The translations under genes and the position numbers were made by a program. Source: Escherichia phage pEC-M719-6WT.2. Taken from it: a DNA stretch of 64,000 nucleotides. Positions 3,909 to 22,597 of the stretch are shown here, piece by piece. How positions within the stretch are numbered: the stretch's first letter is position 1; every line of letters starts with the position of its first letter. The DNA is taken from the sequence record OQ845958.1, one strand, 5' to 3'. Below the pieces are notes generated by a model. That model was not told where the DNA came from. It was given only the letters and a program-made list of their open reading frames with translations, and made no database searches.

Positions 3909-4820
3909 ATGTCTATGTTTAAACGTAAAAACCCTGCTGACCTGGCTGCTTCCCTTAACGCTCTGAAAGGTGGTTCCGGTTTCTCTTCTGACGATAAAAA
4001 AGAATGGAAACTGAAAGATACTGATGGCGTCGGCTCTGCGGTTATTCGTTTCCTGCCTTCCAAAAATGAAGAAAATCCATCTCCGTTCATCAAGCTCGTT
4101 AACCACGGCTTTAAAAATGGCGGTCAATGGTATATTGAAAACTGTACTTCTACTCACGGCGACTATGAAAACTGTCCTGTGTGTGCGTACATGAATAAGA
4201 ATGACCTGTACAATACAAACGAATCCGAATATCGTAAACTGAAGCGTAATACTTCTTACTGGGCTAACATCCTGGTCATTAAAGACCCTGCTGTTCCGTC
4301 TAACGAAGGCCAAGTATTCAAATATCGCTTCGGCAAGAAAATCATGGACAAAATTAACCAGATGGTTGAAGTCGATGTTGACATGGGCGAAACAGCTATT
4401 GATGTAACTTGTCCTTTTGAAGGTGCAAACTTTGTACTGAAATCTAAACTGGTTTCCGGTTATAAAAACTACGATGATTCCAAATTCATGAACCAGTCTG
4501 AAATCGCTGGTATCAATGATGAAGCATTCCAGAAAAAACTTTGGGACGAAATGTCTGACCTGAATGAATTGCTGGTGTTTAAATCCCTTGAAGAGAATCA
4601 GAAGAAATTCTCTAAAGTAATGGGTACGGCTGCTCTTGGCGGTGCTGCTTCTAAAGCCGCTGCACAAGCTGATAAACTGGGCGCTGACCTGGACGATTTC
4701 GATAAAGATATGGAAGACTTCACTTCCAGCAAACCTGCTAAGTCTGAACGCACTGCGACTGCTCCAAGCACTCCAGAGCCTTCCGATGATGGTCTTGACG
4801 ACCTTCTGGCTGGCCTTTAA
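3909..4820 (+). CDS. 32: single-stranded DNA-binding protein gp32
   Basis: 303 aa; FLPSKN, LVNHGFK, YWANILV and acidic C-terminus match T4 gp32 from memory. Confidence 0.97.
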
Positions 4821-4824
4821 TATA

Positions 4825-4853
4825 AGGGGACCTTCGGGTCCCTTTTTTATTTT
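4825..4853 (+). terminator. intrinsic terminator (GGGACC-UUCG-GGUCCC hairpin + U-tract)
   Basis: ggggaccttcgggtccc followed by ttttttatttt immediately after the gene 32 stop. Confidence 0.7.
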
Positions 4854-4859
4854 CAAAAA

Positions 4860-4895
4860 GTAGTGTACAAGTCCTTTGAGCTAAGGCATAATGAT
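4860..4895 (+). promoter_or_regulatory. sigma70-like early promoter cassette (-35 GTGTACAA, -10 CATAAT)
   Basis: tagtgtacaa, 17 nt spacer, cataat; the same cassette recurs upstream of several small ORFs (6335, 14378, 15925, 22154, 46373). Confidence 0.5.
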
Positions 4896-4930
4896 TCCAT
4901 CAACTACTGATAACAACTGAGGAAATAAAA

Positions 4931-5293
4931 ATGGAAATCGGCAAAAAATATGAGTTCAATCCACATCGTATTAAATCTTTCATTGATATTAGTTCATCGA
5001 ATGCTAGTATGGTCGACATCATCCAAGAAAATGGCGGTTGGTTTGAAGTTAAATCAATATCAAGTGCAGACGGCTATGATTATGTAACCGAAATAATTTG
5101 TGCTAATGGTGCAATCTATAATGATGATGGCATGGGTGATGATTATTTTGAACTTAGTGAAGAAGAGTTTTATTGCTTCCGAGAATACTCCAATTATGCA
5201 AAAACACCTTCAGGGGCGGTTTCTATTAATTGTGTTGTGGATGCTAATAACGTCGACCAAATCATTGAACTTCTACAAAAAGCTTTCAAATAA
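4931..5293 (+). CDS. hypothetical early protein (paralog-family member)
   Basis: 120 aa with GAGGAAATAAAA ribosome-binding site; shares GK(K/F)Y...F(I/V)(D/A) and DYFEL...EF motifs with ORFs 5642-6073 and 18508-19050. Confidence 0.55.
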   Translation: MEIGKKYEFNPHRIKSFIDISSSNASMVDIIQENGGWFEVKSISSADGYDYVTEIICANGAIYNDDGMGDDYFELSEEEFYCFREYSNYAKTPSGAVSINCVVDANNVDQIIELLQKAFK

Positions 5294-5355
5294 CAGTTTA
5301 CAACAGGTCTATGGTTGAGATATTATAGACCTATCAACTACATGAGGAAAATAAA

Positions 5356-5583
5356 ATGGCTAAGGTTAATATTGATATCGTTGATTTTGAATACACTTAC
5401 GAAGTTATTCGTAATCGTTATCCTTCTTTGAGTATGACTTACATTAAAGATACTGTATTCTTTGGTATTCAAATTGAAGTCCAAGGTCCTCTTGAAGACA
5501 TTACCCGCTTTATGCAAAATGAATATTGTGATGGTATGTACCCCGAAGACACTAAATTTTATATGAATTTGATTGAAGCTTAG
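5356..5583 (+). CDS. hypothetical protein
   Basis: 75-aa ORF preceded by GAGGAAAATAAA ribosome-binding site. Confidence 0.45.
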
Positions 5584-5641
5584 TATACAAACCAATGGGA
5601 ACATGCTAATATGTTCCCTCAACCAAAATGAGGAAATTAAA

Positions 5642-6073
5642 ATGGAAACTGGTAAATTTTACGTATTAGACCCCGCTGCCAAAAAACAATTCATCGCTGA
5701 TAGTCCTGATGACAATTCGTGCATGGTCAGGTTGATGGAACAACATGGCAATTCCTTCAAAGTCCTGGATATGTGTTATATTGAAGGTGATTATTTTGTT
5801 GAAAAAGTTGAAATGAAAGATGGCACCATCCTGAATAGTATGGGTGGTGCTGATGAGTACTTTGAACTCGCTGGATGGGAATTCTGTCACTTCCTGGAAG
5901 TTGATGGCGATGCACCTGTTGATACCCAAACCATTCATGTGCAGGTAAATCACAAAAATGCGGCAGAAGTTGATGGCGATGCACCTGTTGATACCCAAAC
6001 CATTCATGTGCAGGTAAATCATAAAAATGCCGCAGAAGTCATTGCACTGATTAAAGCAACTTTTGGGGTCTAA
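5642..6073 (+). CDS. hypothetical protein carrying an internal 23-aa tandem duplication (ORF-track frame starts 5573)
   Basis: Internal ATG with GAGGAAA ribosome-binding site; contains EVDGDAPVDTQTIHVQVNHKNAA twice in tandem. Confidence 0.55.
   Translation: METGKFYVLDPAAKKQFIADSPDDNSCMVRLMEQHGNSFKVLDMCYIEGDYFVEKVEMKDGTILNSMGGADEYFELAGWEFCHFLEVDGDAPVDTQTIHVQVNHKNAAEVDGDAPVDTQTIHVQVNHKNAAEVIALIKATFGV
5897..6034 (+). repeat. 69-bp in-frame tandem duplication (2 copies, about 2 mismatches)
   Basis: gaagttgatggcgatgcacctgttgatacccaaaccattcatgtgcaggtaaatca(c/t)aaaaatgc(g/c)gca repeated head-to-tail. Confidence 0.9.
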
Positions 6074-6329
6074 TATGACTAAAGATGATTTCCTGGATGC
6101 AGTGGAAAAAGCCAGTGAACAATTTGAAGTGATGGGTGTGCGTTTGCATAAAGACAGAAATTATGGTCTGGATGTTCAAACCTACTCATTATGGCTTGTG
6201 GGTGAGCACAGCCTTGCAACCAATCTTGTTATGGGTGTAGATACATATCCTTTATTAGTTAAGTTCAGAAGTATGGAAAAAGCCACTAAGGAAATGATTA
6301 AACTTGGCAAATGGCTTGATAAAATTTAA
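6063..6329 (+). CDS. hypothetical protein
   Basis: 88-aa ORF overlapping the previous stop; coding-like composition. Confidence 0.45.
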   Translation: MGSNMTKDDFLDAVEKASEQFEVMGVRLHKDRNYGLDVQTYSLWLVGEHSLATNLVMGVDTYPLLVKFRSMEKATKEMIKLGKWLDKI

Positions 6330-6334
6330 AAAGT

Positions 6335-6368
6335 AGTGTACAACCAAATGGGGCTATGACATAATGGT
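6335..6368 (+). promoter_or_regulatory. early promoter cassette (GTGTACAA ... CATAAT)
   Basis: aaagtagtgtacaa ... cataatggtcccatactgag; near-identical to the cassettes at 4860 and 15925. Confidence 0.5.
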
Positions 6369-6404
6369 CCCATACTGAGCTACCAAATAAAACTGGAGAA
6401 TAAA

Positions 6405-6644
6405 ATGAAATTACAACGTGAAAGCATCAAAGATTCAGAAGTTAAAGGCAAATGGTACTTTACAATCCAGGGTAACAATCCAGAAGCTCTGGAAAAAGCT
6501 GAAGAAACTTTATGCGCGATGGGTTGGAAAGATGAGTGCGATGGTTGTCCTCTTTATGAAGATGGTAGCTCATCTGGTTTCTGGATTCATCACTCTGACG
6601 TTGACCAATTTAAAGCTGACTGGAAAGTTGCCAAGAAAGCGTGA
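6405..6644 (+). CDS. hypothetical protein
   Basis: 79-aa ORF with GGAGAATAAA ribosome-binding site downstream of early promoter cassette. Confidence 0.5.
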   Translation: MKLQRESIKDSEVKGKWYFTIQGNNPEALEKAEETLCAMGWKDECDGCPLYEDGSSSGFWIHHSDVDQFKADWKVAKKA

Positions 6645-6654
6645 GGAAAATATA

Positions 6655-8430
<1,776 letters not shown>

Positions 8431-8431
<1 letters not shown>

Positions 8432-8628
8432 TGAATATTCGTATAGTAAACAATAGATACGGCACCAATGAGGTGCTGTTTGAAAAAATGAATATAAGTC
8501 TCGATGAACTGCCTAAAGAGAAAACAACGATTTTTGTCCAAAACAAAGAACTTTATGTTATGCGTGTGATTAAATCGTATGAATATGATGATTTCAATCG
8601 GTCTATCTGGTTTATTGTCGAGGTCTAA
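8431..8628 (+). CDS. hypothetical protein
   Basis: 65-aa ORF overlapping td stop (ATGA-type junction). Confidence 0.4.
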
Positions 8629-8689
8629 TGAAAATTCAAATTGCTGGCCTTTTATTTCTGGCCATAATGGTCGGGCTTAACTTCCTACT

Positions 8690-8989
8690 ATGAAAGCCTG
8701 TCGGGTTGTTAACAAATATCAATCCGACTTTGATGTGAATATTCAACGGGGTACCATGTGGGGAAACCCATACAAAGATGGTACCCGAGAAGAAAACATA
8801 AAGAACTTTAAAGAATATTTCATAGCAAAGATTAAATCGGGCGAAATCAAAAGAGAACACCTTGAAACCCTTCGCGGAATGCGATTAGCTTGTACATGCA
8901 AACCAAAAGCATGTCATGGGGATATCATCGCTCTGGTCGTTAACAAACTTTTCAAAGACACCTTTTCGCTCGAGGATTTGGGCGCATAA
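8690..8989 (+). CDS. hypothetical protein, possibly DUF4326-like
   Basis: 99 aa; WGNPY ... ACTCKPKACHGD pattern resembles the DUF4326 family as I recall it; not verifiable here. Confidence 0.45.
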   Translation: MKACRVVNKYQSDFDVNIQRGTMWGNPYKDGTREENIKNFKEYFIAKIKSGEIKREHLETLRGMRLACTCKPKACHGDIIALVVNKLFKDTFSLEDLGA

Positions 8990-9048
8990 ATACGATTCCG
9001 CTTCAGGGCGCTGTGATATAATTATTTAAAATTTAATGAGAGGAAATT

Positions 9049-9294
9049 ATGAATTTACGATTTAAACGCCAGTCAGGCGAAGTCATTTTTGAAATGCCAC
9101 AATTTACCGAACAGGATTTACCTGCACCAAATTCTTATATCACTATTGACGGAATCAAATTTCTGGCCAAACGACATGAACGTGTCTACTGTCATGATTC
9201 AGCCGGTGACGTCCAGTCATATTTTGACATCACTGTCCAGTCAGAAGAAGAATATAATGATGAAATGACTTCGGAACTACCAGAGACAATTTAA
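9049..9294 (+). CDS. hypothetical protein
   Basis: 81-aa ORF with GAGAGGAAATT ribosome-binding site. Confidence 0.45.
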   Translation: MNLRFKRQSGEVIFEMPQFTEQDLPAPNSYITIDGIKFLAKRHERVYCHDSAGDVQSYFDITVQSEEEYNDEMTSELPETI

Positions 9295-9327
9295 GGTTCC
9301 CAACCCTTTTGAACTATAGAGGAAAAC

Positions 9328-11583
9328 ATGCAAGTACAAAAAAGTAGTGGTGTATCTCAAGATTTTGATGGCCAGAAAATTATTAAAGTTCTTTCCTGGT
9401 CATGTGAAGGAACTAATATCGACCCGTATGAATTATACGAAACAATCAAACCACATCTGCGCGATGGCATGACTACTCGCGATATTCAGACGGTTATCAT
9501 CAAAGTATCCGCTGGGCTTATTTCGGTTGAAGAACCAGATTACCAATATGTTGCAGCGAAGGCTACGATGTTTGCTCTACGTAAAGATGTTTATGGACAA
9601 TTTGAGCCACGTTCTTTTATTGACCAGATTTCTTATTGTGTTAATGAAGGTAAATATGACCCAGAGCTGTTGTCAAGCTACTCAGCTGAAGAGATTACTT
9701 ACCTGGAATCTCGTATTAAGCACGAACGCGATTTTGACCTGACTTATGCAGGCGCGATGCAGCTTAAAGAGAAATACCTGGTTAAAGATAAAACCACTGG
9801 GAAAATCTATGAGACTCCACAGTTCGCTATCATGGCCATCGGCATGGCACTGCACCAGGATGAACCAACGGACCGCCTGAAGCACGTTTGCCGTTTTTAT
9901 GATGCAGTATCCACGCAACAGGTTTCGTTGCCCACACCTATCATGGCGGGCGCCAGAACACCTACCCGACAGTTCAGTTCGTGTGTGGTTATCGAAGCTG
10001 CGGACTCCCTGAAGTCAATTAATAAGACTGCTAATTCAATCATCGAATATATCAGCAAGCGTGCAGGTATTGGTATCAACGTTGGCATGATTCGTGCTGA
10101 AGGTTCGAAAATCGGTATGGGTGAAGTCAAGCATACTGGTGTTATTCCGTTCTGGAAACATTTCCAAACGGCTGTTAAATCATGTTCACAAGGTGGAATC
10201 CGTGGCGGCGCTGCTACTGCTTATTATCCTATTTGGCATTTGGAAGTTGAAAATTTACTCGTTCTGAAGAACAACAAGGGCGTTGAAGAAAACCGCATCA
10301 GACATATGGACTATGGTGTCCAGCTGAATAACCTGATGATGGAACGACTGGCTAAGAATGATTACATCACTCTGTTTAGTCCGCACGAAGCAGGTGGTGA
10401 ATTGTATTATTCATATTTTGATAACCCAGATAAATTCCGTGAGTTATATGAAGCCTTGGAAAAAGACCCGACAGTTCGTAAGAAGCGCATCAAAGCAAAA
10501 GATGTATTTGAATTATTCATGACCGAACGTTCCGGGACAGCCAGGGTTTATCCGCAGTTCGTCGATAACGTGAATGACTACACTCCGTTCATCCGTGATA
10601 AGGCTCCAATTCGTCAATCAAACCTTTGCTGCGAAATTGCAATCCCGACCACTGATGTAAACAGCGAAGATGCTGAAATCGGATTGTGTACATTGTCTGC
10701 GTTTGTTCTGGATAGTTTTGACTGGCAGGACCAAGATAAAATTAACGAGCTGGCCGAAGTGCAAGTTCGTGCTCTTGATAACCTGTTGGACTACCAGGGT
10801 TATCCGGTTAAAGAAGCTCTGAAAGCCAAAAAACGCCGCAACCTTGGTGTTGGGGTTACTAACTATGCTGCATGGCTAGCAAGCAATTTCGCTTCCTACG
10901 CTGATGCAAACGATTTAACGCATGAACTGTTCGAGAGATTACAATATGGTCTTATCCGTGCATCAATCAAGCTCGCCAAAGAAAAAGGACCTTGCGAATA
11001 TTATTCAGACACTCGTTGGGCTCGAGGCGAATTACCTATCGACTGGTACAATAAAAAGATTGACCAAATCGCAGCTCCAAACTACGTTTGTGACTGGGCG
11101 CAGCTGCGGGAAGACCTGGTTGAACATGGCATCCGTAATAGCACATTATCAGCACTTATGCCTTGTGAGTCATCTTCCCAAGTTTCTAACAGTACAAACG
11201 GTATCGAACCTCCGCGTGGACCAGTCTCTATTAAAGAGTCAAAAGAGGGTTCCTTTAATCAAGTCGTGCCCAATATTGAACACAATAAAGGATTGTACGA
11301 TTACGCATGGGTGCTAGCTAAGCAAGGTAACAAACCTTATCTGACACAAGTCGCGATTATGTTGAAATGGATTTGTCAGTCAGCATCAGCCAATACATAT
11401 TATGACCCGCAGAATTATCCGAAAGGAAAAGTTCCGATGTCAGTTATGCTTGACGACTTGATGTACTTCTGGTATTTTGGTGGTAAAAACCTTTATTATC
11501 ATAACACTAGAGATGGTTCTGGTACAGACGATTACGAAATCGAAGCTCCTAAAGCAGAAGACTGCTCTGCCTGTAAACTTTGA
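9328..11583 (+). CDS. nrdA: aerobic ribonucleotide reductase large subunit
   Basis: 751 aa; class I RNR motifs and C-terminal CxxC tail; matches T4 NrdA from memory. Confidence 0.97.
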   Translation: MQVQKSSGVSQDFDGQKIIKVLSWSCEGTNIDPYELYETIKPHLRDGMTTRDIQTVIIKVSAGLISVEEPDYQYVAAKATMFALRKDVYGQFEPRSFIDQISYCVNEGKYDPELLSSYSAEEITYLESRIKHERDFDLTYAGAMQLKEKYLVKDKTTGKIYETPQFAIMAIGMALHQDEPTDRLKHVCRFYDAVSTQQVSLPTPIMAGARTPTRQFSSCVVIEAADSLKSINKTANSIIEYISKRAGIGINVGMIRAEGSKIGMGEVKHTGVIPFWKHFQTAVKSCSQGGIRGGAATAYYPIWHLEVENLLVLKNNKGVEENRIRHMDYGVQLNNLMMERLAKNDYITLFSPHEAGGELYYSYFDNPDKFRELYEALEKDPTVRKKRIKAKDVFELFMTERSGTARVYPQFVDNVNDYTPFIRDKAPIRQSNLCCEIAIPTTDVNSEDAEIGLCTLSAFVLDSFDWQDQDKINELAEVQVRALDNLLDYQGYPVKEALKAKKRRNLGVGVTNYAAWLASNFASYADANDLTHELFERLQYGLIRASIKLAKEKGPCEYYSDTRWARGELPIDWYNKKIDQIAAPNYVCDWAQLREDLVEHGIRNSTLSALMPCESSSQVSNSTNGIEPPRGPVSIKESKEGSFNQVVPNIEHNKGLYDYAWVLAKQGNKPYLTQVAIMLKWICQSASANTYYDPQNYPKGKVPMSVMLDDLMYFWYFGGKNLYYHNTRDGSGTDDYEIEAPKAEDCSACKL

Positions 11584-11621
11584 TATAATTATGCTCATGG
11601 ATGAGCTATTGAGGAAATAAA

Positions 11622-12800
11622 ATGAGTACAGTTTTTAATACCACTCCGGTGGATGTTTTAGCCGAGCCAATGTTCTTCGGTTCAGGATTGGGAATTGCCC
11701 GTTATGATATCCAGCGTCATAAAGTTTTTGAAGAATTAACAGAAAAGCAATTATCATTCTTCTGGCGTCCAGAGGAAGTAAACCTGATGATGGACGGAGC
11801 CCAATTTAATAAGCTTCCTGAACATCAACAAAATATTTTTACCAACAACCTGAAATACCAGTCGCTTCTGGATAGTATTCAGGGTCGTGCTCCTGCAGCA
11901 GCATTAGCCGCATTAGTTTCTGACCCGAGTCTTGATACCTGGATTCAGACTTGGACATTCAGCGAGACAATTCACTCTCGTTCTTATACGCACATCATGC
12001 GAAATCTCTATACGGACCCGGCGAAGGTATTCGACGAAATCCTGTTAGATGATGCAATCATGAAGCGAGCAGAATCCATCGGTCATTACTATGATGATGT
12101 TCTGAATAAAACTCGTCAATGGCAAAACCAGATTGCTTTTGTTGAACTGGCCAAAGAAACTCCCGAAGCGGACGAACGTTTGGAACGAGCTATCAAACAA
12201 GAATCTATCGCCAAACGAGCATTGATGAAGTCTCTTTATCTCTGCCTGCATGTCATTAATGCCCTGGAAGCCATTCGTTTTTATGTATCTTTTGCATGTA
12301 CTTTCAACTTCCATAAGAACATGGAAATCATGGAAGGCAATGCGAAGATAATGAAGTTCATCGCCCGCGATGAACAGCTCCACCTTAAGGGGACCCAATA
12401 TATTCTTCGTCAGCTGCAGACTGGTGTTGACGGTGACGAATGGGTTAAAATCGCTCGCGAATGTGAAGCAGAAGCCGCAGACATTTTCATGGAAGTTAAT
12501 CGCCAGGAAAAAGAATGGGCCGTGCATCTGTTTAAAGACGGTGGACTCCCTGGGCTGAGCGTCGAGATTCTTAACCGGTTCATCGATTACCTGACGGTTT
12601 CTCGTATGAAGCAATGTGGTCTCCCGTGTGAAATCGTGTTAGAATCTACTAAGCACCCGATTCCATGGATTCGCGAATATCTTAACTCTGATAATGTGCA
12701 ATCAGCACCACAAGAAGTTGAGTTGTCTGCTTACCTGGTAGCCCAAATTGACAATGACGTCGATGAGAACGTTCTTGCTGGTTTCCGTAAATATCTATAA
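11622..12800 (+). CDS. nrdB: aerobic ribonucleotide reductase small subunit, uninterrupted
   Basis: 392 aa contiguous ORF with di-iron/tyrosyl radical signature; follows nrdA after a 38-nt gap. Confidence 0.96.
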   Translation: MSTVFNTTPVDVLAEPMFFGSGLGIARYDIQRHKVFEELTEKQLSFFWRPEEVNLMMDGAQFNKLPEHQQNIFTNNLKYQSLLDSIQGRAPAAALAALVSDPSLDTWIQTWTFSETIHSRSYTHIMRNLYTDPAKVFDEILLDDAIMKRAESIGHYYDDVLNKTRQWQNQIAFVELAKETPEADERLERAIKQESIAKRALMKSLYLCLHVINALEAIRFYVSFACTFNFHKNMEIMEGNAKIMKFIARDEQLHLKGTQYILRQLQTGVDGDEWVKIARECEAEAADIFMEVNRQEKEWAVHLFKDGGLPGLSVEILNRFIDYLTVSRMKQCGLPCEIVLESTKHPIPWIREYLNSDNVQSAPQEVELSAYLVAQIDNDVDENVLAGFRKYL

Positions 12801-12802
12801 GG

Positions 12803-12824
12803 AAAGGGCTTCGGCCCTTTTTGT
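12803..12824 (+). terminator. intrinsic terminator (GGGC-UUCG-GCCC + U-tract)
   Basis: aaagggcttcggccctttttgtc directly after the nrdB stop. Confidence 0.6.
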
Positions 12825-12826
12825 CT

Positions 12827-13237
12827 ATGAAACAAATCGCTGACGAATACAGTTTTATAAAATACGCGGAGTTAGAGTTAGTCGATGGTAAAATCCCTAT
12901 CCTTACTCTCGCAAACAAGAAAAATGTTATCTATGCTATTTCAGTTGATGATGAACTAGTGTATATTGGTAAGACGAACAACCTTAAGAAGCGTATCAAC
13001 TATTACCGGACTGCAATCAACCGAATCGAACAGACGAGTGATTCAAACAAATCCCGGATGATACATGAAGCTTTACAAGAAGGCAAAAAGGTGGTATTCT
13101 ATGCACGACAATGTTTCAATCTGTCAATGACCAATGAACTTGGTACGATGTCAGTCGAAACGATGTCTCTGGAAGAGCCGATGTTCATCAAGCTTTTTAA
13201 TCCCCCGTGGAATTACCAACATAAGGTGAAGAAATGA
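12827..13237 (+). CDS. denA: endonuclease II (GIY-YIG family)
   Basis: 136 aa from ATG at 12827 (ORF track starts 6 nt earlier); VIYAI ... VYIGKTNNLKKRINYYR and FNPPWN match T4 EndoII from memory. Confidence 0.9.
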   Translation: MKQIADEYSFIKYAELELVDGKIPILTLANKKNVIYAISVDDELVYIGKTNNLKKRINYYRTAINRIEQTSDSNKSRMIHEALQEGKKVVFYARQCFNLSMTNELGTMSVETMSLEEPMFIKLFNPPWNYQHKVKK

Positions 13238-14370
13238 TTGAATTATATGATAACTTAATGAAGCTTTGCACCGAATCCGATAAAGGTAAGTTTTTCTATA
13301 CGGATTTTGTTTCTCCATTTGAAACTAAGTTCCGCATCTTTAGCTATAACTATGCTTCCTATAGTGATTGGCTCCTTGATGATGCGCTGGAGTGCCGTGG
13401 CATTATGTTTGAAATGGATGACAATGGTCCAGTTCGCATTGCTGCTCGCCCTATGGAAAAATTCTTTAATCTGGGTGAGAATCCAATGACCATGGACCTT
13501 AACCTTGATAAGGTTGTCCTGGTTACTGCAAAAGCTGATGGTAGCTTGGTTTCTACTTATATGGACCAGACTAATATCGCCTTTAAATCAAAGGGGTCAA
13601 TCAAAAGCTCCCAAGCAGCTGAATCCTTGCAGGTGTTTAAACAAGAACATCGCAGTGCATTCAGGGCTCGTGTGACTGAAATCACTGAAGCTGGTTATAC
13701 ATGCAACATGGAATATGTTGCACCGACCAACCGCATTGTTTTGCCTTACCAGGAACGTGACCTTATTTTACTGAACGTTCGTCATAATGAAACTGGTGAA
13801 TATATTCCTTATCAGGAGCTGTTCAAAGATGCAGCGCTTCGTCCTTTCCTGGTTGAAGCATATGACCCGGCAACCATTGAGAATGTTCGCGGTATGAAAG
13901 AGATTGAAGGCTTCGTCTATGAGATGGCTAACGGTCAGAAGTTCAAGATGAAAACAGAATGGTATTGTGCTCTGCATCATACTAAAGACTCCATTAATAA
14001 TAATGAGCGACTGTTTGAAGTTGTTGTTGCTGGCGGCGCGGATGATGTTATTGCCATGTTTACTGGCGATACTTATGCTCGTGAAAAAGTTACTGCCTTT
14101 ACTGCAACACATCTGGATTATCTGTCCAACACTCTTGGACTGTTGCTTGATGCACAAAAACAGTTAGCAGGAAAAGACCGTCGCGAGTTTGCGATTAAAG
14201 GTCAAGAGTTATGTAAACCATATCCGGGATTGTTCTCCGTATTAATGAACACCTATCAACGCCCACAGGAAACTGAACAAACGATTGCTCAAATCAATAA
14301 AGTTTTCCTTAAAAATCATAAACTTTACATTCCGTTAGACTACCAGGCGGAAGTAATCCTTCCTGAATAA
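13234..14370 (+). CDS. rnlA: RNA ligase 1
   Basis: 378 aa; FSYNYASYSDWLLDDALECRGIMFE, EDGSLVSTY, FVAPTNRIV match T4 Rnl1 (gene 63) from memory. Confidence 0.9.
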   Translation: MIELYDNLMKLCTESDKGKFFYTDFVSPFETKFRIFSYNYASYSDWLLDDALECRGIMFEMDDNGPVRIAARPMEKFFNLGENPMTMDLNLDKVVLVTAKADGSLVSTYMDQTNIAFKSKGSIKSSQAAESLQVFKQEHRSAFRARVTEITEAGYTCNMEYVAPTNRIVLPYQERDLILLNVRHNETGEYIPYQELFKDAALRPFLVEAYDPATIENVRGMKEIEGFVYEMANGQKFKMKTEWYCALHHTKDSINNNERLFEVVVAGGADDVIAMFTGDTYAREKVTAFTATHLDYLSNTLGLLLDAQKQLAGKDRREFAIKGQELCKPYPGLFSVLMNTYQRPQETEQTIAQINKVFLKNHKLYIPLDYQAEVILPE

Positions 14371-14373
14371 TAA

Positions 14374-14412
14374 AAAAGGGGTGTACAAGCCCCTTCTTTC
14401 TATACATAATGG
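14374..14412 (+). promoter_or_regulatory. terminator hairpin fused to early promoter (-35 in hairpin loop)
   Basis: aaggggTGTACAAgcccctt then ctttctatacataat; stem GGGG/CCCC encloses the -35-like TGTACAA, CATAAT about 17 nt later. Confidence 0.5.
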
Positions 14413-14441
14413 TTCCATCAACTACTGATGAGGACCAAAAC

Positions 14442-14675
14442 ATGTTAAACTTAATTACAAATGACAGAGTTACAAAGGCATATGGTGACAGAAATGATGG
14501 AATCTATGTCTATAAGGGAGACCGCCGGATTGGTTTCATTACTGACCTAAAGGCCAAATTGTTAAAAGAACTGAAAGCTCAAACAAGTGATTCTGGGTTT
14601 AGAGCAAGAGCCAAAAAGAAAGATGAGCGCCTGGGTGCCAACTCTTTTGGTCCCCGGGGTTACAACCGCTACTAA
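14442..14675 (+). CDS. hypothetical protein; paralog of the N-terminal domain of the next gene
   Basis: 77 aa from internal ATG; YGDRNDGIYVYKGDRRIGFITDLKAKL parallels YGDRHDGIYVYKGTKKIGLMTDLRKKL in ORF 14689-15192. Confidence 0.5.
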   Translation: MLNLITNDRVTKAYGDRNDGIYVYKGDRRIGFITDLKAKLLKELKAQTSDSGFRARAKKKDERLGANSFGPRGYNRY

Positions 14676-14688
14676 TGAGGAAAATATT

Positions 14689-15192
14689 ATGGATATGCAA
14701 CTGATTTCAAACGAAATGATTGTCAATGAATATGGTGACCGCCATGACGGAATTTATGTCTATAAAGGGACCAAGAAAATTGGTCTCATGACTGACCTGC
14801 GGAAAAAACTCGCCTCCAATAAAAAGTTGAAGGCGAAACAAAAAGAATATCGTGATAAAAAATCAGAAGAGCGGAAAGAAGCACTGCATGAATCTGTTCC
14901 TGAAATGGTTGACTTCTTAAAGAACCATTTGGTTAAATATGATGCAGAAGTGTTCATTAACCAGACCCAACCTAATGTACATATCAATGGATGTGTTTGT
15001 TATGTTGTGGTTGAACCCCTGACACTTCAACACCGCCTGGGGATTAAACACCCAGTGTTAACCCAGGATGATATGGCGGATGAAGTTGGTAATCAGTTCC
15101 GCATTTCAGCGTCTGACAGTACAAATCACATCCTCCTGAATGGTTTATCCCAGGATGATATTGTTGAGGTAATCATCAAGTTATGCAAATAA
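14689..15192 (+). CDS. alc: candidate Alc-like protein (host transcription shutoff), by position and length only
   Basis: 167 aa from internal ATG with GAGGAAAATATT ribosome-binding site; lies between rnlA and the spanin pair where T4 has alc. No sequence memory of T4 Alc to confirm. Confidence 0.4.
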   Translation: MDMQLISNEMIVNEYGDRHDGIYVYKGTKKIGLMTDLRKKLASNKKLKAKQKEYRDKKSEERKEALHESVPEMVDFLKNHLVKYDAEVFINQTQPNVHINGCVCYVVVEPLTLQHRLGIKHPVLTQDDMADEVGNQFRISASDSTNHILLNGLSQDDIVEVIIKLCK

Positions 15193-15536
15193 GTAATCTC
15201 ACTGCAGGGCTTATGCTAGCCCTGGTAGTAACTGCTGGTAGTGGTTTCTATCTAAAAGCAAAAGTAGATAATCTCAAGACGGCGGTGGCGGAAGTCACCA
15301 AAGTTGCAGAAGATAACGCGAAAAATCTGCAATCAGTAAAAGACCAGATTAATCAAATTAATCTCCTTGACCAGGAGCGCCAGGAATATGTTGAACTTCT
15401 GCAGAAGGAAAATGATAAACTCCGCGCAGATGCAAAACGTACTAAGGTTGTGGCAGCGAAGCCTAAATTAGTTGAAAAACAGATTAATCAGTCTTTTGAT
15501 AAGTTTGCCCAGGACTTCCAGGAGCTCACCAAATGA
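15183..15536 (+). CDS. i-spanin (Rz-like; T4 pseT.3 equivalent)
   Basis: 117 aa; N-terminal transmembrane segment (LMLALVVTAGSGF) followed by charged coiled-coil; overlaps the next ORF. Confidence 0.7.
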   Translation: MQISNLTAGLMLALVVTAGSGFYLKAKVDNLKTAVAEVTKVAEDNAKNLQSVKDQINQINLLDQERQEYVELLQKENDKLRADAKRTKVVAAKPKLVEKQINQSFDKFAQDFQELTK

Positions 15537-15823
15537 TGAAATCTATCATGGCAGTATGTTTGGCTATTGGACTCGTTTCATGCGCCCAGAAGCCCGTTGT
15601 GGAGCCCACAATCCAAGTTCATCCTAATTGGCCTGTTGCATTGGCTGATTACAAACAGCAATGGGAAGTTAAGGTAATTGAGGGTCAAGCCTGGGTTGGT
15701 ATGCCTTTTGAAGCATCGCAAGAATTCCGGATTTGGATGAATGATGTAAAAAGATATGTACATGACCAAAAAGGTATGTTATGTTATTATCGTTCTGAAC
15801 TAAAAGAAGAACGTTGCAAATGA
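15533..15823 (+). CDS. o-spanin lipoprotein (Rz1-like; T4 pseT.2 equivalent)
   Basis: 96 aa; signal peptide with lipobox LVSC; start overlaps i-spanin stop. Confidence 0.7.
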   Translation: MMKSIMAVCLAIGLVSCAQKPVVEPTIQVHPNWPVALADYKQQWEVKVIEGQAWVGMPFEASQEFRIWMNDVKRYVHDQKGMLCYYRSELKEERCK

Positions 15824-15924
15824 TAGAGAACTGTAGCCTTGGTTGGGATATTGTTAGATTTGGTGCATTCTGTTTTTGTTTTGGAATTGCGGCCACTTTA
15901 TGTGTTCAAGGTCTTTTTGGAAAG

Positions 15925-15958
15925 TAGTGTACAAACTCATGGGAGCAGAGTATAATGC
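15925..15958 (+). promoter_or_regulatory. early promoter cassette (GTGTACAA ... TATAAT flanked by short inverted repeat)
   Basis: aaagtagtgtacaa ... GGAGCAgagTATAATgcTCCT; 6-bp inverted repeat brackets the -10. Confidence 0.5.
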
Positions 15959-15984
15959 TCCTACGGATTATAAAATTTGAGGAA

Positions 15985-16469
15985 ATGACTATGACTTTAC
16001 GTGATAACAGTTTTGTGGCTAAGCCTGAATACATTTCAAGTATTAAATCTCCTGTATTACAAAAGCTCTTAAAATTAGGGTCCTGTGCAAGTACACCAAT
16101 TGAAAAGAAGGCAACTTTCGATTTTGCTTGGGCTATTGTGGACGGTATTGATGTAGTAAGACAGGTAACTTTTTATGCTCCTGGTGCTATTGAGCCTTCC
16201 CAAATTATTAACCTGGATGGAAGTAATTATATTACTATCCAACAGTGGTATCGTATGATGCGACCTGTTTGGGAATACCCAGAATTTATTGAAGAATACA
16301 ATGAAAAAGAACGTATTCGTGAACTGGTAAAAAGTTTTGAATATGCGGCTAAACGCCATGGTCAAATGCAAGCTGCCGCTACGCTTGGTGATGTTTCTGA
16401 AAGCGCGGCTTATGAAACTGGTAAAATCCTTAAAACTTGTCGCGAAGAACTTTATAAGGAGCTTGGTGT

Positions 16470-16473
<4 letters not shown>
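15985..16473 (+). CDS. hypothetical protein (internal start of ORF-track 15955-16473)
   Basis: ATG preceded by GAGGAAATGA; 162 aa. Confidence 0.45.
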
Positions 16474-17691
<1,218 letters not shown>

Positions 17692-17692
<1 letters not shown>

Positions 17693-17889
17693 TGAATAAT
17701 ATCGAAAAGATTTTTCGTACAATCGAAGAAATTGAAAAACGTTACGAATACTTTTTCAGTGTATGGCCTTTAACTGATGGACGTATTGGCCTGGATGTAA
17801 TGGACTATAAAGATGAAGACAAGGTCGATGGTGGTATTTTTAAATCCGCTCCAGAACTCTTGGCATTCTTGGAAGAACATTATGTATAA
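17692..17889 (+). CDS. hypothetical protein (internal start of ORF-track 17662-17889)
   Basis: ATG overlapping the pseT stop (TAATG); 65 aa. Confidence 0.4.
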
Positions 17890-18097
17890 CAAACACCATG
17901 AAGTTGAAGAAGAAGCTTATAAAGAGCTTCAGAAACTGGTAGGTCAGAATATGTCTCCTGCTCTTATCAATAACCTGGCTGCACTGCGTAATGACATCAA
18001 CGAACGGTACAAGGGCGAATATTATGTTGAATTCGTTCCGCTGACTGAAGTCATTGACCGATTTATCGTTAATGTCAAGGTGCATACCGTCCATTAA
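17882..18097 (+). CDS. hypothetical protein (internal start of ORF-track 17813-18097)
   Basis: ATG overlapping the previous stop; 71 aa. Confidence 0.4.
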   Translation: MYNKHHEVEEEAYKELQKLVGQNMSPALINNLAALRNDINERYKGEYYVEFVPLTEVIDRFIVNVKVHTVH

Positions 18098-18122
18098 CGC
18101 TTTAAAAATTTTATGGTATAAT
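18098..18122 (+). promoter_or_regulatory. MotA-type middle promoter
   Basis: cGCTTTAA, 12 nt, TATAAT, then conserved leader GGGGTCTAGGTCC; same architecture as promoters at 36613 and 42618. Confidence 0.5.
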
Positions 18123-18168
18123 GGGGTCTAGGTCCTTTGGATACCCCGATAACTAAGCGAGAAAAGAA

Positions 18169-18447
18169 ATGTTTCCCACATATTCTGAAATTGTTAAAGT
18201 ACTTTTTAGTCAGATTGTATCTGATTATCTATACGAAAGCGTCGACGTGTCGACTGAACTAAAAGTGCACGGTCGTTTGTCTGCTATTCTGGAAATCATG
18301 TTCCCAGATGCAGTTGATGCAATCACTGTTCAACTCACGCCTGGTGCAGCATTTGCAATTGTTCCATTTAAAATTGATAACCACATTTTGGCTATTTCAT
18401 GCAAAATGGACTTCCAGAAACAAACGGTAGTTGTCGAAGCAATTTAA
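18169..18447 (+). CDS. hypothetical protein
   Basis: 92-aa ORF with GAGAAAAGAA ribosome-binding site. Confidence 0.45.
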   Translation: MFPTYSEIVKVLFSQIVSDYLYESVDVSTELKVHGRLSAILEIMFPDAVDAITVQLTPGAAFAIVPFKIDNHILAISCKMDFQKQTVVVEAI

Positions 18448-18448
18448 G

Positions 18449-18478
18449 TGTTTACTTTCACCATGGATGGTGTATAAT
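18449..18478 (+). promoter_or_regulatory. early promoter (-35 GTTTAC, extended -10 gtgTATAAT)
   Basis: gtttactttcaccatggatggtgtataat upstream of ORF 18508. Confidence 0.5.
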
Positions 18479-18507
18479 GAATTTCATCAACACATGAGGA
18501 AAACAAA

Positions 18508-19050
18508 ATGAGCGATTTCTTTGAAGAAGGTAAGTTTTACAAATTTGTATCTGAAAATGCCAAAAAACAATTTATTGCCGGAGGCTGGGCAGCTAATTAC
18601 CAAATTGCCGGATACATCGGTATGACTCCATTTGAAGTTAAGATTTTACCTGATAATGTTAGCGGCGGTAAAAAAGTTTGTGAGATTCGTTTGATTGATG
18701 AAAATGATTTTGTGGATTTGGCAAAAATATCTGACGAAGGAAACAGACATCGTGGAGCAATGTTTGTTTCCGCTGGTCCGTTGTCAGATGAATTCCAATA
18801 TTTCATTCAGGCTGAAGTTGGTGTTAAGCCAGAAGTTGAACCTGCGCCAGTAAAACTTGCATCAGTTTGGAAATTGCTCGTGGTTAAAAATGGCAAGATT
18901 GAGATCAACTCTCGTCATACATCAAAAGAATATGCGGAAGACGAAGCAGAGCGCCTGTTAAACCGCGGTACTGCAGAAGATTGTTATATTATCAAAGGCG
19001 ATATCACAAAAGCTTCTATCGTTAAACAAGTTAAACAGGAGACAATCTGA
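18508..19050 (+). CDS. hypothetical protein (paralog-family member)
   Basis: 180 aa; N-terminal GKFYKFVSENAKKQFIA resembles TGKFYVLDPAAKKQFIA of ORF 5642-6073. Confidence 0.5.
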   Translation: MSDFFEEGKFYKFVSENAKKQFIAGGWAANYQIAGYIGMTPFEVKILPDNVSGGKKVCEIRLIDENDFVDLAKISDEGNRHRGAMFVSAGPLSDEFQYFIQAEVGVKPEVEPAPVKLASVWKLLVVKNGKIEINSRHTSKEYAEDEAERLLNRGTAEDCYIIKGDITKASIVKQVKQETI

Positions 19051-19295
19051 TGCTTAGCGAAACCCCAATTACTGTTGAAGAGTTCCACGAAAAAGTGAAG
19101 TCATTTGCTCAAGAGATGATTAACCGAGTATCGCAGCGATTCCCTGCTGCGACTTTGCAAGTTATTCAGGAATCTGCACGCAGTTTTATGATTGTCATTA
19201 ATCCGAAAATTACCCTAAAAGGTGGTGACCAGTTTACCCAACTGAAATTGGGTTCTGACGGTCTGGTTGAAGCGCAGCGAGTGTATATTCAATGA
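19050..19295 (+). CDS. hypothetical protein
   Basis: 81-aa ORF with start overlapping the upstream stop. Confidence 0.4.
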   Translation: MLSETPITVEEFHEKVKSFAQEMINRVSQRFPAATLQVIQESARSFMIVINPKITLKGGDQFTQLKLGSDGLVEAQRVYIQ

Positions 19296-19627
19296 TGAAT
19301 TTAATGGATATTTTCAAAGAATCACTTAAAAATGATTTAGGTGACCATCGTAAGTTGGACCCAGAAACAACTGCATTTATCAAAGTAACGCTTGCGAATG
19401 ATGCTCTGTTTAAAAGTATTCACCCAAGTAATTATGATGCGGTTGTTATCACAGAAGCTCCTGTAGAAATTGGTGAGCGAATGTTTGGGGTGATTTTTGA
19501 CGATAAGAAAAAACGCTTCAGCGACGGTGATAGTATAATTACAACACATGTTAAGAGCATTACTAAATTGCGACATGAATTATATCGTGTTGAAACTATT
19601 AAAACCAATTATCTCGTGGTGATGTAA
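19292..19627 (+). CDS. hypothetical protein
   Basis: 111-aa ORF with start overlapping the upstream stop. Confidence 0.4.
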   Translation: MMNLMDIFKESLKNDLGDHRKLDPETTAFIKVTLANDALFKSIHPSNYDAVVITEAPVEIGERMFGVIFDDKKKRFSDGDSIITTHVKSITKLRHELYRVETIKTNYLVVM

Positions 19628-20209
19628 ATGAAACCAACTACTGTTCTGCAAATCGCATACCTTGTATCTCAAGAATCCAAATGTTGCTCCTGGAAAGTGG
19701 GAGCTGTTATTGAAAAGAATGGACGCATTATTTCTACAGGGTATAATGGTTCCCCTGCAGGTGGGGTCAACTGTTGCGAGCATGCGGAAGAGCAAGGTTG
19801 GTTACTGAATAAACCTAAACCTGTTCTCGTCCCCGGTCACAAGCCAGAATGTGTGAGATTCAGTAAGGTTGACCGTTTTGTATTGGCGAAAGCCCATCGC
19901 GAAGCCCATTCCGCATGGTCAAAGAACAACGAAATCCATGCTGAGCTTAATGCGATTCTGTTTGCAGCCAGAATGGGTTCGTCAATTGAAGGCGCTACTA
20001 TGTATGTGACGCTTTCTCCTTGCCCTGATTGTGCAAAGGCAATTTCCCAATCAGGAATCAAGAAATTGGTTTACTGTGAAACGTATGACAAGAATATTCC
20101 TGGCTGGGATGATATCCTGAAGAATGCGGGAATTGAGGTGTTCAATGTGCCTAAGCGTAGTCTAGACAAATTGAACTGGGAAAACATTAACGAATTTTGT
20201 GGTGAATAA
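19628..20209 (+). CDS. cd: dCMP deaminase
   Basis: 193 aa; cytidine/dCMP deaminase zinc motifs (CEHAE ... SPCPDCAK); length equals T4 Cd. Confidence 0.92.
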   Translation: MKPTTVLQIAYLVSQESKCCSWKVGAVIEKNGRIISTGYNGSPAGGVNCCEHAEEQGWLLNKPKPVLVPGHKPECVRFSKVDRFVLAKAHREAHSAWSKNNEIHAELNAILFAARMGSSIEGATMYVTLSPCPDCAKAISQSGIKKLVYCETYDKNIPGWDDILKNAGIEVFNVPKRSLDKLNWENINEFCGE

Positions 20210-20442
20210 TGAAATTTCGTCTAGTTAAATTTTCAGGTCTGAACTCAAAAGGTGAAAACCTGGTAGCCTTTTCAGTAGAATATAAAAAGTACTTTTTCTC
20301 TCGCTGGAAATCGTACTATAAATCTGAGTGGGTTCGCGCCGAAATGAAATATAAAACGGTACCTATTCTTGATAATTGTCACCGTCTATTGCGTGCTCTA
20401 AAAGAGCGTAATGCAACCACTATTAAAACTGTTTTGGAATAA
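20209..20442 (+). CDS. hypothetical protein
   Basis: 77-aa ORF overlapping the cd stop. Confidence 0.4.
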   Translation: MKFRLVKFSGLNSKGENLVAFSVEYKKYFFSRWKSYYKSEWVRAEMKYKTVPILDNCHRLLRALKERNATTIKTVLE

Positions 20443-20444
20443 TT

Positions 20445-20744
20445 ATGATTTTAACTGAACAAGAAACAATTCGCCTTCGCGAAAAAGTCAAGACTATCTT
20501 GTCTGTCGGCTTTCATGAAGTTCTGTTTGAAAAAGCAGATGGTAGCATCCGTCGTATGACTTGTACTCGCGACCTGGACCTGCTTCCATATAAAGAAATC
20601 CAGGCCCCTGGACCAGAAGTCAATAAAGAACCAGTTAGCTATATCCGGGTATTTGATACCAAGCTTAATGAATGGCGTTCATTCTGTTTCAATAAATTGA
20701 TTTCCGTGAATGGACTGCAGACCGAGACTCTGCTCGTCCTTTAA
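20445..20744 (+). CDS. hypothetical protein
   Basis: 99-aa ORF directly after the previous ORF. Confidence 0.4.
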   Translation: MILTEQETIRLREKVKTILSVGFHEVLFEKADGSIRRMTCTRDLDLLPYKEIQAPGPEVNKEPVSYIRVFDTKLNEWRSFCFNKLISVNGLQTETLLVL

Positions 20745-20769
20745 TGCTTCAAACAATGCATGCTATTAT
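20744..20769 (+). promoter_or_regulatory. candidate MotA-type middle promoter for gene 31
   Basis: aTGCTTCA, about 12 nt, TATTAT immediately upstream of the gene 31 start. Confidence 0.4.
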
Positions 20770-20775
20770 TAATAC

Positions 20776-21123
20776 ATGACCAAACAACATGGATTAAATA
20801 TGGAATTACCAATTAAAGCAGTAGGTGAATATATTATTTTGGTTTCTGAGCCAAAGCAAGCCGGTGATGAAGAAACTACGGCATCAGGTATCGTTATCGG
20901 AAAACTCCATCAGGGTGAAATCCCGGAGATGTGTGAAGTATTTTCGGTTGGTCCGGATGTTCCTGAAGGATTCTGCGAAGTAGGTGATTTGACTCCTCTT
21001 CCGGTTGGCAAGATTGCAAACGTTCCACATCCTCTGGTTGCTCTGGGGCTTAAGCAGGCTAAAGAAGTTAAGCAAAAATTTGTGACCTGTCATTATAAAG
21101 CTGTTCCTTGTCTTTATAAGTAA
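20776..21123 (+). CDS. 31: co-chaperonin (GroES-like) for capsid folding, gp31
   Basis: 115 aa; AVGEYxILVSEPxQAGDEE, [17 protein letters not shown], VTCHYKAxPCLYK match T4 gp31 from memory. True start could be the second ATG at 20800. Confidence 0.9.
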
Positions 21124-21294
21124 AATTAGCGTTATAAATAATAATATGGATTGGTTGATGTCATACAGAGCTTTGCTGGTGTATGGGGTTAGCTAATCCT
21201 AAACGGTGGACTACAACTGAGAGACTTGCCGAAAGGAAGTGAAATTCAGAAGAACGTGTCCACCAAATATTCACCTCATATTGAGGCTTCTAAA

Positions 21295-21549
21295 ATGTCT
21301 TTAAACAAACAATTACAACACGCTCTCGAACTGCAACGCACTGCATGGAATAACGGTCACGAAAACTACGGCGCATCTATTGATGTTGAAGCCGAAGCAC
21401 TGGAAATTCTGCAGTATTTCAAACATCTTAACCCGGTTCAAACCGACCTTCGCGCAGTGCTCGAAGCAAAAGATGAACTGAAATTTGCTAAGCCGCTGGC
21501 ATCTGCTGCCCGTAAAGCTGTTCGCCATTTTGTCGTAACCCTGAAGTAA
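21295..21549 (+). CDS. rIII: rIII-like protein (by position and size only; internal start of ORF-track 21226-21549)
   Basis: 84 aa from ATG with GAGG ribosome-binding site; T4 rIII is a small protein lying next to gene 31. No sequence memory to confirm. Confidence 0.35.
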   Translation: MSLNKQLQHALELQRTAWNNGHENYGASIDVEAEALEILQYFKHLNPVQTDLRAVLEAKDELKFAKPLASAARKAVRHFVVTLK

Positions 21550-22109: not shown

Positions 22110-22112
22110 GTT

Positions 22113-22593: not shown

Positions 22594-22597
22594 AACA

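Follow-up and report, generated by a model that had tools for sequence, protein, structure and literature searches.

The closest described counterparts of the sequences reported here are the promoter-early stem-loops (PeSLs), first defined in phages RB49 and phi1 by Arbiol et al. 2010 (PMC2839356). In a PeSL, a sigma-70-like promoter is combined with an A/T-rich tract and a stem-loop, and a Shine-Dalgarno (SD) sequence and an ATG follow; the stem-loop can occupy five possible positions, most commonly between the promoter boxes or overlapping the -10 (PMC2839356). Promoter and terminator activity have been shown for the RB49/phi1 PeSLs, and neighbouring PeSLs were found experimentally to recombine into mini-circles (PMC2839356). 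The family was extended to PST/T4 (TTTACW...TAYWAT) and to nt-1/KVP40 by Comeau et al. 2014 (PMC4122927). The PeSL papers also mention 'PeSL-like sequences' near gene 43 of JS98, while Gaprivervirus is not analysed in them. T4 early promoters, a second point of reference, are very strong promoters of the UP/-35/TGn/-10 type with extra conserved positions, and are read by unmodified host sigma-70 polymerase with stimulation by Alt (PMC2988021). A third is provided by the morons of lambdoid phages.

The sequence analysed here (the window) is the 64,000-nt stretch of Escherichia phage pEC-M719-6WT.2 (OQ845958.1), in which recurrent early promoter cassettes with associated stem-loops had been predicted in front of small ORFs. 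The cassettes share with PeSLs sigma-70-like boxes about 17 nt apart, an A/T tract, a stem-loop, and the SD and ATG of a small gene. Like PeSLs, they are composite and intergenic, carry the stem-loop in varied positions, precede a small non-essential gene and cluster in hyperplastic regions, with chimeric cassettes and module indels between close relatives. They differ in their boxes: the -35 is GT(G/T)TAC and the -10 often CATAAT, compared with TTGACA/TATAAT in RB49 and TTTACW/TAYWAT in PST/T4. A further difference is the initial transcribed sequence GATTCCAT(ACTGAG or CAACTACTGAT), common to five copies. The likeness is one of sequence; the promoter, terminator and mini-circle activities of PeSLs were demonstrated in RB49/phi1. 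The original prediction had referred to promoter-plus-stem-loop modules of some T4-type phages, and these do exist in the literature, as PeSLs (PMC2839356; PMC4122927). The cassettes are of this already described type. For Gaprivervirus no explicit description was found, a search of one literature library for early promoters or PeSLs in the genus returning no paper.

Morons resemble the cassettes in that a small accessory gene brings along a promoter and in some cases a terminator as well. One example in the window is the cassette and 93-aa ORF lying antisense between late genes 24 and 23. Morons, in contrast, lack a conserved flanking repeat and are considered to insert by illegitimate events (discussion in PMC2839356), whereas in the window exchange probably takes place in the repeated regulatory sequence.

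Genome context and recurrence of the motif

By its sequence, the window is from a Gaprivervirus, a relative of T4 (Straboviridae, Tevenvirinae). Positions 4000-24000 share 91-98% identity with the Escherichia and Shigella phages EAWsc9, UPEC07, VR7, VR20, VR25, VR26 and SP18, and a query with 4-24 kb returned 31 GenBank records with coverage of 80% or more. The + strand carries T4-like early and middle genes between 1.7 and 29.3 kb (rnh, dsbA, 33, 59, 32, frd, td, nrdA, nrdB, denA, rnlA, alc, pseT, cd, 31, rIII, 30.9-30.1, 30 and alt, the last at nt 26915-28975). Outside this interval the - strand is occupied mostly by late structural genes. When the window was scanned for Rfam families and tRNAs, nothing was found.

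Eight cassette positions had been proposed, and all of them hold the motif, with offsets of 1-3 nt at most. The consensus offered for them, (G/T)GT(T/G)TACAA and (C/T)ATAAT about 17 nt apart, proved too narrow as a strict pattern: in its literal form, first base included, it matches only three sites, and without the first base it matches six of the eight. The sites at 18449 and 22598 carry GTTTACTT, and 22598 also has TATTAT, so that both miss the shortened form. A relaxed pattern, GT[GT]TAC-N17-20-(C/T/G)AT(A/T)AT or TANAAT, was applied to the whole window and matched 10 distinct sites, every one of them on the + strand, against a chance expectation of 0.9 +/- 0.95 from first-order Markov simulations of both strands. 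The earlier observation of recurrent cassettes is confirmed. A two-block weight-matrix scan, with a reporting cutoff 4 bits under the top score of six simulated strands, recovered the same 10 + strand sites and none on the - strand above the cutoff. Two of the sites, 5296 and 28978, are additions to the earlier list, and two degenerate copies at 5583 (GTATAC) and 42101 (weak -10, TAAGAT) bring the total to 12 cassettes.

The cassette is also the largest direct-repeat family in the window according to an unbiased, promoter-blind repeat finder, which returned family D1 (seven copies of 46 nt) and family D2 (five copies of 61 nt), along with a leader repeat of 34 nt that occurs three times. A generic sigma-70 scan of the window, on the other hand, found 64 sites against 53 +/- 7.6 expected, which is no significant enrichment, so the informative signal lies in the phage-specific extended motif only. 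The description of the copies as near-identical holds for five cassettes (4863, 6336, 14381, 22154 and 46373, named below P1, P3, P4, P7 and P10), which score 30-34 bits in leave-one-out tests and have CATAATG(A/G)T(T/C)CCAT in common. It does not hold for the others, which score 13-22 bits, near the null maximum.

Structure of the cassettes

All 12 cassettes are intergenic and have the same orientation as the small ORF downstream. That they precede small ORFs was borne out: the ORFs downstream are 63-180 aa long and, one alc-related ORF apart, come from phage families whose function is unknown. The 20 nt upstream of the cassettes average 74% A+T, compared with 59 +/- 11% for random 20-mers of the window, with P9 (55% A+T) as the exception to this A/T-rich tract. 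The -35 is GT(G/T)TAC, usually followed by AA, and the spacer of the 12 sites is 16-18 nt. The -10 reads CATAAT, TATAAT, TATTAT or TACAAT, is preceded by TGn in a few cassettes, and lies 29-41 nt from the ATG. In 11 of the 12, GAGG or GGAG forms a Shine-Dalgarno site 10-11 nt upstream of the ATG.

Four cassettes, all on the + strand as are those that follow, lie between gene 32 and frd.1. P1 (nt 4821-4933), between gene 32 and a frd.2a-like ORF, begins with the intrinsic terminator GGGGACCTTCGGGTCCC plus T-run (4824-4851, hairpin 4824-4845) and an A-rich tract, continues with -35 GTGTAC (4863) and -10 CATAAT (4887-4892), and ends with leader GATTCCATCAACTACTGAT, GAGG and the ATG at 4931. P2 (nt 5294-5358), upstream of frd.3 (ATG 5356), has -35 GTTTAC (5296) and -10 TATTAT (5321-5326), the latter within the inverted repeat AGGTCTAT...ATAGACCT (minimum free energy (MFE) -13.2, z -3.6). 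The degenerate P2b (nt 5584-5644), a member of repeat family D1 found upstream of a Frd.2-family ORF (ATG 5642), has -35 GTATAC starting at 5583 within the frd.3 stop codon, -10 TAATAT (5607-5612) and the inverted repeat GGGAACAT...ATGTTCCC (MFE -12.0, z -5.1). P3 (nt 6330-6407), upstream of frd.1 (ATG 6405), combines -35 GTGTAC (6336) with TGn and -10 CATAAT (6360-6365); the repeat ATGGGGCTAT...ATGGTCCCAT encloses the -10 (MFE -14.6) and is followed by leader CCATACTGAG and GGAG.

P4 (nt 14371-14444) precedes an N-terminal alc-like ORF (ATG 14442) and has a small hairpin, GGGG-TGTACAA-GCCCC, over the -35 (14381), with -10 CATAAT at 14405-14410; it is nearly invariant in eight relatives. P5 (nt 15900-15993) precedes a 160-aa ORF (phrog_4482, ATG 15991) with -35 GTGTAC (15927) and -10 TATAAT (15951-15956), the -10 being enclosed by GGGAGCA...TGCTCC (MFE -12.9). 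P6 (nt 18448-18510) lies between cd.3 and a 180-aa ORF (ATG 18508), with -35 GTTTAC (18450), -10 TATAAT (18473-18478) and a 5-bp spacer hairpin, CACCA..TGGTG.

P7 (nt 22110-22227), upstream of 30.8 (ATG 22225), carries the terminator GGGACTCTTCGGAGTCCC plus T-run (22116-22139, hairpin 22116-22133), -35 GTTTAC (22154), TGn with -10 CATAAT (22178-22183), leader GATTCCATACTGAG and GGAG. P8 (nt 22594-22667), upstream of 30.7 (GGAG, ATG 22665), has -35 GTTTAC (22598) and -10 TATTAT (22621-22626) within a 10-bp inverted repeat, GGTACAGGTT...AACCTGTACC (MFE -17.3, z -6.1, lowest 0.3%). P9 (nt 28976-29041), upstream of alt.-3 (ATG 29039), has -35 GTTTAC (28978), -10 TACAAT (29002-29007) and a 4-bp spacer hairpin, GCAC..GTGC.

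Two cassettes lie outside the early region. P10 (nt 46350-46446), in the gap between genes 24 and 23 and upstream of a 93-aa ORF (phrog_6003, nt 46444-46725, ATG 46444), is on the strand opposite to these flanking late genes and consists of -35 GTTTAC (46373), -10 CATAAT (46397-46402), leader GATTCCATACTGAG and GGAG, with no hairpin. The weak P11 (nt 41979-42162), upstream of a 63-67-aa ORF (phrog_1566), has the terminator GGGACCTTCGGGTCCC (41988-42003, hairpin 41985-42005), -35 GTTTACAA (42101) and a poor -10, TAAGAT (42125-42130); its membership is doubtful because its leave-one-out score is only 0.5 bits.

Probable early promoters and their counterparts in T4

The reading of the cassettes as early promoters agrees with their geometry, strand, small-ORF context and positional counterparts in T4, and from the sequence and T4 together we infer that they are active. 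Matching cassettes in T4 follow gene 32 and precede 30.8, 30.7, cd.2 and alc. After gene 32 the layout is that of P1 (terminator, TTTTTTATTTT, A-rich tract and GTTTACAA) and upstream of 30.8 it is that of P7, while upstream of 30.7 both promoter and hairpin are nearly identical to P8. The counterpart of P6 lies between cd.3 and cd.2, where the T4 GenBank record names the early promoter Pe133295, and an early-promoter-like cassette upstream of T4 alc corresponds to P4. The cassettes vary hardly at all within the genus, the third -35 position changing between G, T and A among orthologues, and loci of other Tevenvirinae genera contain the same motif family, with 39 copies on the + (gene) strand against two on the - strand. 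Given the same arrangement at the T4 junctions, the conservation within the genus and the wider Tevenvirinae family, the cassettes are very probably classical early promoters of a T4-like phage (Gaprivervirus).

They share with the T4 early promoters the -35 core GTTTAC, the A-rich upstream tract, the 16-18 nt spacer and the occasional TGn. In several copies in the window, unlike in T4, the third base of the -35 is G and the first base of the -10 is C, and the gene order near the cassettes of the 32-frd region differs from that of T4.

On this model, host sigma-70 polymerase would bind right after infection to the A/T tract, the -35 GT(G/T)TAC(A/T)(A/T), the 16-18 nt spacer and a -10 of the form (C/T)A(T/C)(A/T)AT, at times with TGn, and would start transcription about 7 nt downstream. 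The product would have a short leader of 20-35 nt, leading into a small early gene whose ATG lies 10-11 nt after the ribosome site GAGG or GGAG. The UUCG-loop terminators at the head of three cassettes would end the preceding transcription unit, and these terminators, together with hairpins that form only in read-through RNA, would limit or shape transcription coming from it. Stimulation by Alt and a role of the hairpins would also be expected in this phage.

Proposed gene shuffling at the cassettes

The cassettes had further been proposed to be shuffling units for small early genes, with a comparison of flanking gene content as the check. Nt 1-30 kb of the window were compared with 13 relatives drawn from GenBank records, IMG/VR (queried with gp30.7 and Frd proteins) having yielded only three Gaprivervirus genomes. 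Breakpoints in gene content fall within or directly beside six of 10 cassettes. Those of P1 lie at 4912, 4933 and 4946 (leader and ATG), that of P2 at 5358 (ATG), those of P2b at 5565 and 5581, and those of P3 at 6327, 6342/3 and 6395 (-35 and SD). At P5 a deletion or replacement begins at 15994/15995 (ATG) in SP18, TH44 and TH15, and at P7 the breakpoints fall at 22117-22138, in the terminator.

Several relatives have chimeric cassettes, with switch points at the -35, at -10/+1 or at the SD/ATG. The ORF254c|frd.3 spacer of VR7 follows the 254c side of the window up to the -35 (…AAAAAGTAGTGTACA) and then the spacer, -10 and leader of the frd.3 side, so that the -35 half of P3 is fused to the frd.3 cassette. 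In VR26 and VR25, P1 is retained as far as CATAATGATTCCAT, beyond which leaders and genes are different, and in SP18 the entire P2 cassette precedes frd.2b instead of frd.3, with the switch at the SD/ATG. The upstream half of P10 is common to the Dhakaviruses Bp7 and IME08 up to GTTTACA, beyond which -10 and leader differ; the ORF that follows in Bp7/IME08 is annotated with an identical position and length (282 nt). In SP18, TH57 and TH54 the terminator hairpin upstream of P7 is duplicated, and an additional ORF lies between the copies. Module order varies as well: 32-frd.3-frd.2-frd.1 in T4, frd.2-254c-frd.3-frd.1 in VR7, frd.2-254c-frd.2a-frd.3-frd.1 in TH57 and frd.2a-frd.3-frd.2-254c-frd.1 in the window. 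The promoter-led frd.3 and frd.2-254c modules are thus permuted among phages.

Since cassette stretches of 45-115 nt recur in the same orientation at many junctions, they may serve as homology patches for the phage recombination system, for which homology of under about 50 bp is enough (PMC2839356). Recombination between cassettes would then occasionally move, delete or swap promoter-led gene modules. A role of the cassettes in recombination is rather probable, the pathway being one that we infer.

The strongest alternative is that the cassettes are promoters only, and that breakpoints fall there merely because viable changes in gene content occur at gene boundaries; the cassettes would then simply mark where independent transcription units start, recombination not being favoured. 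The junction-level excess is indeed weak: six of 10 cassette junctions have breakpoints against 13 of 39 others (odds ratio 3, Fisher one-sided p=0.12, not significant). Many indels elsewhere lie at cassette-free junctions or stem from the insertion of homing endonucleases (segG-like in the gap from 59 to 32, mobE-like after pseT), which account for several of these 13 junctions. P4, P6, P8 and P9 show no breakpoint among the 13 relatives, and several cassette positions are common to T4, so those cassettes are stable and not mobile. Three points speak against this alternative: cassettes, at 4.1% of the sequence, contain 12 of the 37 breakpoint clusters (p=1.6e-8 against a uniform null), the switch points fall inside the motif itself (the -35 in VR7, after CATAATGATTCCAT in VR26, the SD/ATG in SP18, and the -35 of P10 in comparison with the Dhakaviruses), and mini-circles formed by PeSL recombination have been demonstrated in RB49/phi1 (PMC2839356). 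Promoters with no part in recombination are therefore a somewhat unlikely explanation. The shuffling proposal is partly supported, on qualitative grounds: the case is convincing for the hyperplastic 32-frd region and for P5, P7 and P10, and it is not general to every cassette, four of the 10 being breakpoint-free and the enrichment not significant.

It is very unlikely that the cassettes are the ends of an active mobile element whose dedicated site-specific recombinase recognises the stem-loop. The idea was raised by the PeSL authors for GGGG...CCCC stem-loops (PMC2839356), and the terminator GGGACCTTCGGGTCCC, with its UUCG loop, recurs at three sites (repeat family D6). The modules, however, have no associated recombinase gene, their downstream ORFs being small and of unknown function; the stems have no common sequence; and the switch points are scattered over -35, -10, leader, SD and terminator, as in homologous exchange and not as at a fixed cleavage site. 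Apart from such an element, active mobilisation of cassettes as circles is conceivable in Gaprivervirus, though improbable.

Stem-loops

Stem-loops accompany the cassettes largely as predicted, and are strong in eight of the 12 (three upstream terminators and five inverted repeats enclosing the -10), weak in three and absent from one. The terminators, UUCG-loop hairpins with a T-run, are upstream of P1, P7 and P11. The repeats enclosing the -10 belong to P2, P2b, P3, P5 and P8, have MFE values of -12 to -17 kcal/mol (z -2.7 to -6.1) and rank in the lowest 0.3-4.8% of the genome's 46-nt windows. Weak hairpins lie over the -35 in P4 and in the spacer in P6 and P9; P10 has none.

Lacking a U-run, the hairpins around the -10 do not count as canonical intrinsic terminators. 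They would fold only in read-through RNA or single-stranded DNA. A transcript from the cassette's own promoter lacks the 5' arm, so the repeat most likely acts on read-through RNA, as an attenuator or 3' stabiliser, for which one RB49 PeSL stem-loop provides a precedent. A more elaborate, and improbable, reading is that the repeats form a device distinguishing two RNA populations, with leader GATTCCATACTGAG as a second signal: read-through RNA would contain both arms and fold, while RNA from the cassette's own promoter would begin inside or after the 3' arm and stay open. If so, mRNA of the same gene would be handled differently (in stability, RegB/RNase E processing or translation) according to the promoter of origin.

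The P8 promoter and stem (GGTACAGG/CCTGTACC) are kept in T4 and in all compared loci but one (L019, CTTGTACC). Across T4 and other genera the P8 stem is essentially invariant, the one-sided change in L019 being the only one, and within the genus P4-P9 show almost no variation. Because the orthologous stems are invariant or nearly so, covariation among orthologues gives no support either way. The arms do differ from promoter to promoter (GGTACAGG, AGGTCTAT, GGGAACAT, GGGAGCA and ATGGGGC), with complementarity kept, which points to a nucleic-acid structure and argues against an operator for a common protein. Dyad symmetry overlapping the -10 is the classical position of a repressor site, and the repeats could in principle be operators at which a dimeric phage or host DNA-binding protein shuts off the early promoters; yet a single protein could not bind all of these different arms, and related loci have the same -10 and leader both with and without a matching 5' arm. 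The operator reading was rejected on account of the differing arms and is hardly credible. Least of all can the recurrence be a chance product of A/T-rich intergenic sequence, an explanation of negligible probability that would fit the unenriched generic sigma-70 scan but is ruled out by the site counts (10 against 0.9 expected, on a single strand), and is also opposed by the rank of the cassette as top direct-repeat family, its fixed placement relative to start codons and its conservation in relatives and T4.

Structured RNAs flanking rIII

The intergenic regions flanking rIII (nt 21124-21294 and 21550-21947) were observed to be conserved non-coding sequence that holds structured RNAs with compensatory changes, well supported by covariation. 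In the rIII|30.9 region, the 5' domain (nt 21580-21682) has 24 pairs, 99% paired, and seven pairs with changes on both sides, against 2.3 +/- 1.0 in shuffles (0/500) and at most one in slid controls; G-U pairs assign this structure to the + strand. The length of a central insert in this element is 0, about 50 or about 152 nt. A single copy of the element per genome was found in 614 phage records, most of which do not annotate it. For the 31|rIII leader 28 pairs are predicted, and compensatory changes occur in 12; the rIII ribosome site lies in its last hairpin. An Rfam search of nt 21000-22250 gave no family match. These RNAs may matter more than the promoter cassettes.

Significance

The cassettes leave current understanding unchanged. 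They are of practical use in annotation, as the GenBank records of relatives could be corrected at several start codons and early promoters, and in the engineering of therapeutic coliphages, because they mark safe insertion points and strong early promoters. For the T4-like phages, they add one more genus in which small accessory genes are wired for immediate expression, and they illustrate how promoter-led gene modules are reordered at repeated regulatory sequences.

Candidate structured RNAs near rIII

The intergenic region between rIII and 30.9 (nt 21550-21947, + strand; 398 nt) is non-coding and looks like a structured RNA absent from Rfam. It is highly conserved among T4-like genera, the T4 version being 244 nt, and consists of two conserved flanks around a central insert of 0, ~50 or ~152 nt (nt 21676-21827, + strand, in the window). 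Within the 5' domain 24 pairs are predicted, 7 of which show compensatory changes, a number matched by none of 500 shuffles and not approached by slid controls (at most one); the structure was assigned to the + strand because of its G-U pairs. The element occurs once per record in 614 phage records and is left without annotation in most of them. A search of nt 21000-22250 against Rfam returned no match, and a tRNA scan found none.

The gap between gene 31 and rIII holds a 171 nt rIII leader (nt 21124-21294, + strand), the 5' start of which is the late-promoter-like sequence TATAAATA. Comparison of T4, Gaprivervirus and other genera shows that the leader structure is conserved, with compensatory changes in 12 of 28 predicted pairs. 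The rIII Shine-Dalgarno site lies inside the final predicted hairpin (CCTCATATTGAGG), which points to translational control of the gene.

Putative promoter cassettes, duplications and repeats

Seven middle-promoter-like cassettes, all on the + strand, lie at nt 1640-1670, 8990-9048, 18098-18168, 20745-20799, 36604-36645, 42611-42660 and 52770-52811. Each combines a MotA-box-like (T)GCTT(T/C)A, a gap of ~12 nt and TATAAT or TATTAT; three of the seven share GTATAATGGTTCTA, and they are similar to the 'PmSL' elements of PMC4122927. The copy at 52770 is located between late genes 19 and 18 and is oriented opposite to both, and so is a possible antisense promoter.

In GenBank records of EAWsc9 and similar phages, the ORF following the early promoter cassette P5 is given a start codon (ATG; nt 15955 in the window) that shares bases with the -10 box (TATAATG). 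An alternative start, 36 nt downstream at 15991, is preceded by GAGGAA, and the protein read from it covers phrog_4482 over its full length. The start at 15991 also agrees better with the cassette geometry than the one at 15955.

The Frd.2-family ORF contains a tandem duplication of 69 nt (nt 5897-6034; perfect register, 97% identity), which accounts both for its length of 143 aa instead of ~120 aa and for an apparent breakpoint at 5966-5971 relative to related phages. Gene 24 (head vertex) is present as tandem paralogues on the - strand (nt 43768-45051 and 45052-46332; 427 and 426 aa) with 72% identity over a 197-nt stretch, and a tandem pair is likewise annotated in the Bp7 and IME08 records. 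An extra small ORF (nt 14442-14675) upstream of alc (nt 14689-15192), served by the early cassette P4, repeats the alc start over 65 nt at 74% identity and resembles an incomplete second copy of the N-terminal part of alc.

A terminator hairpin with a UUCG loop, GGGACCTTCGGGTCCC, recurs in three copies, after gene 32 (nt 4818-4853), after alt.-3 (nt 29324-29359) and before the weak cassette P11 (nt 41979-42014). It is an additional dispersed repeat and a potential source of homology for recombination.
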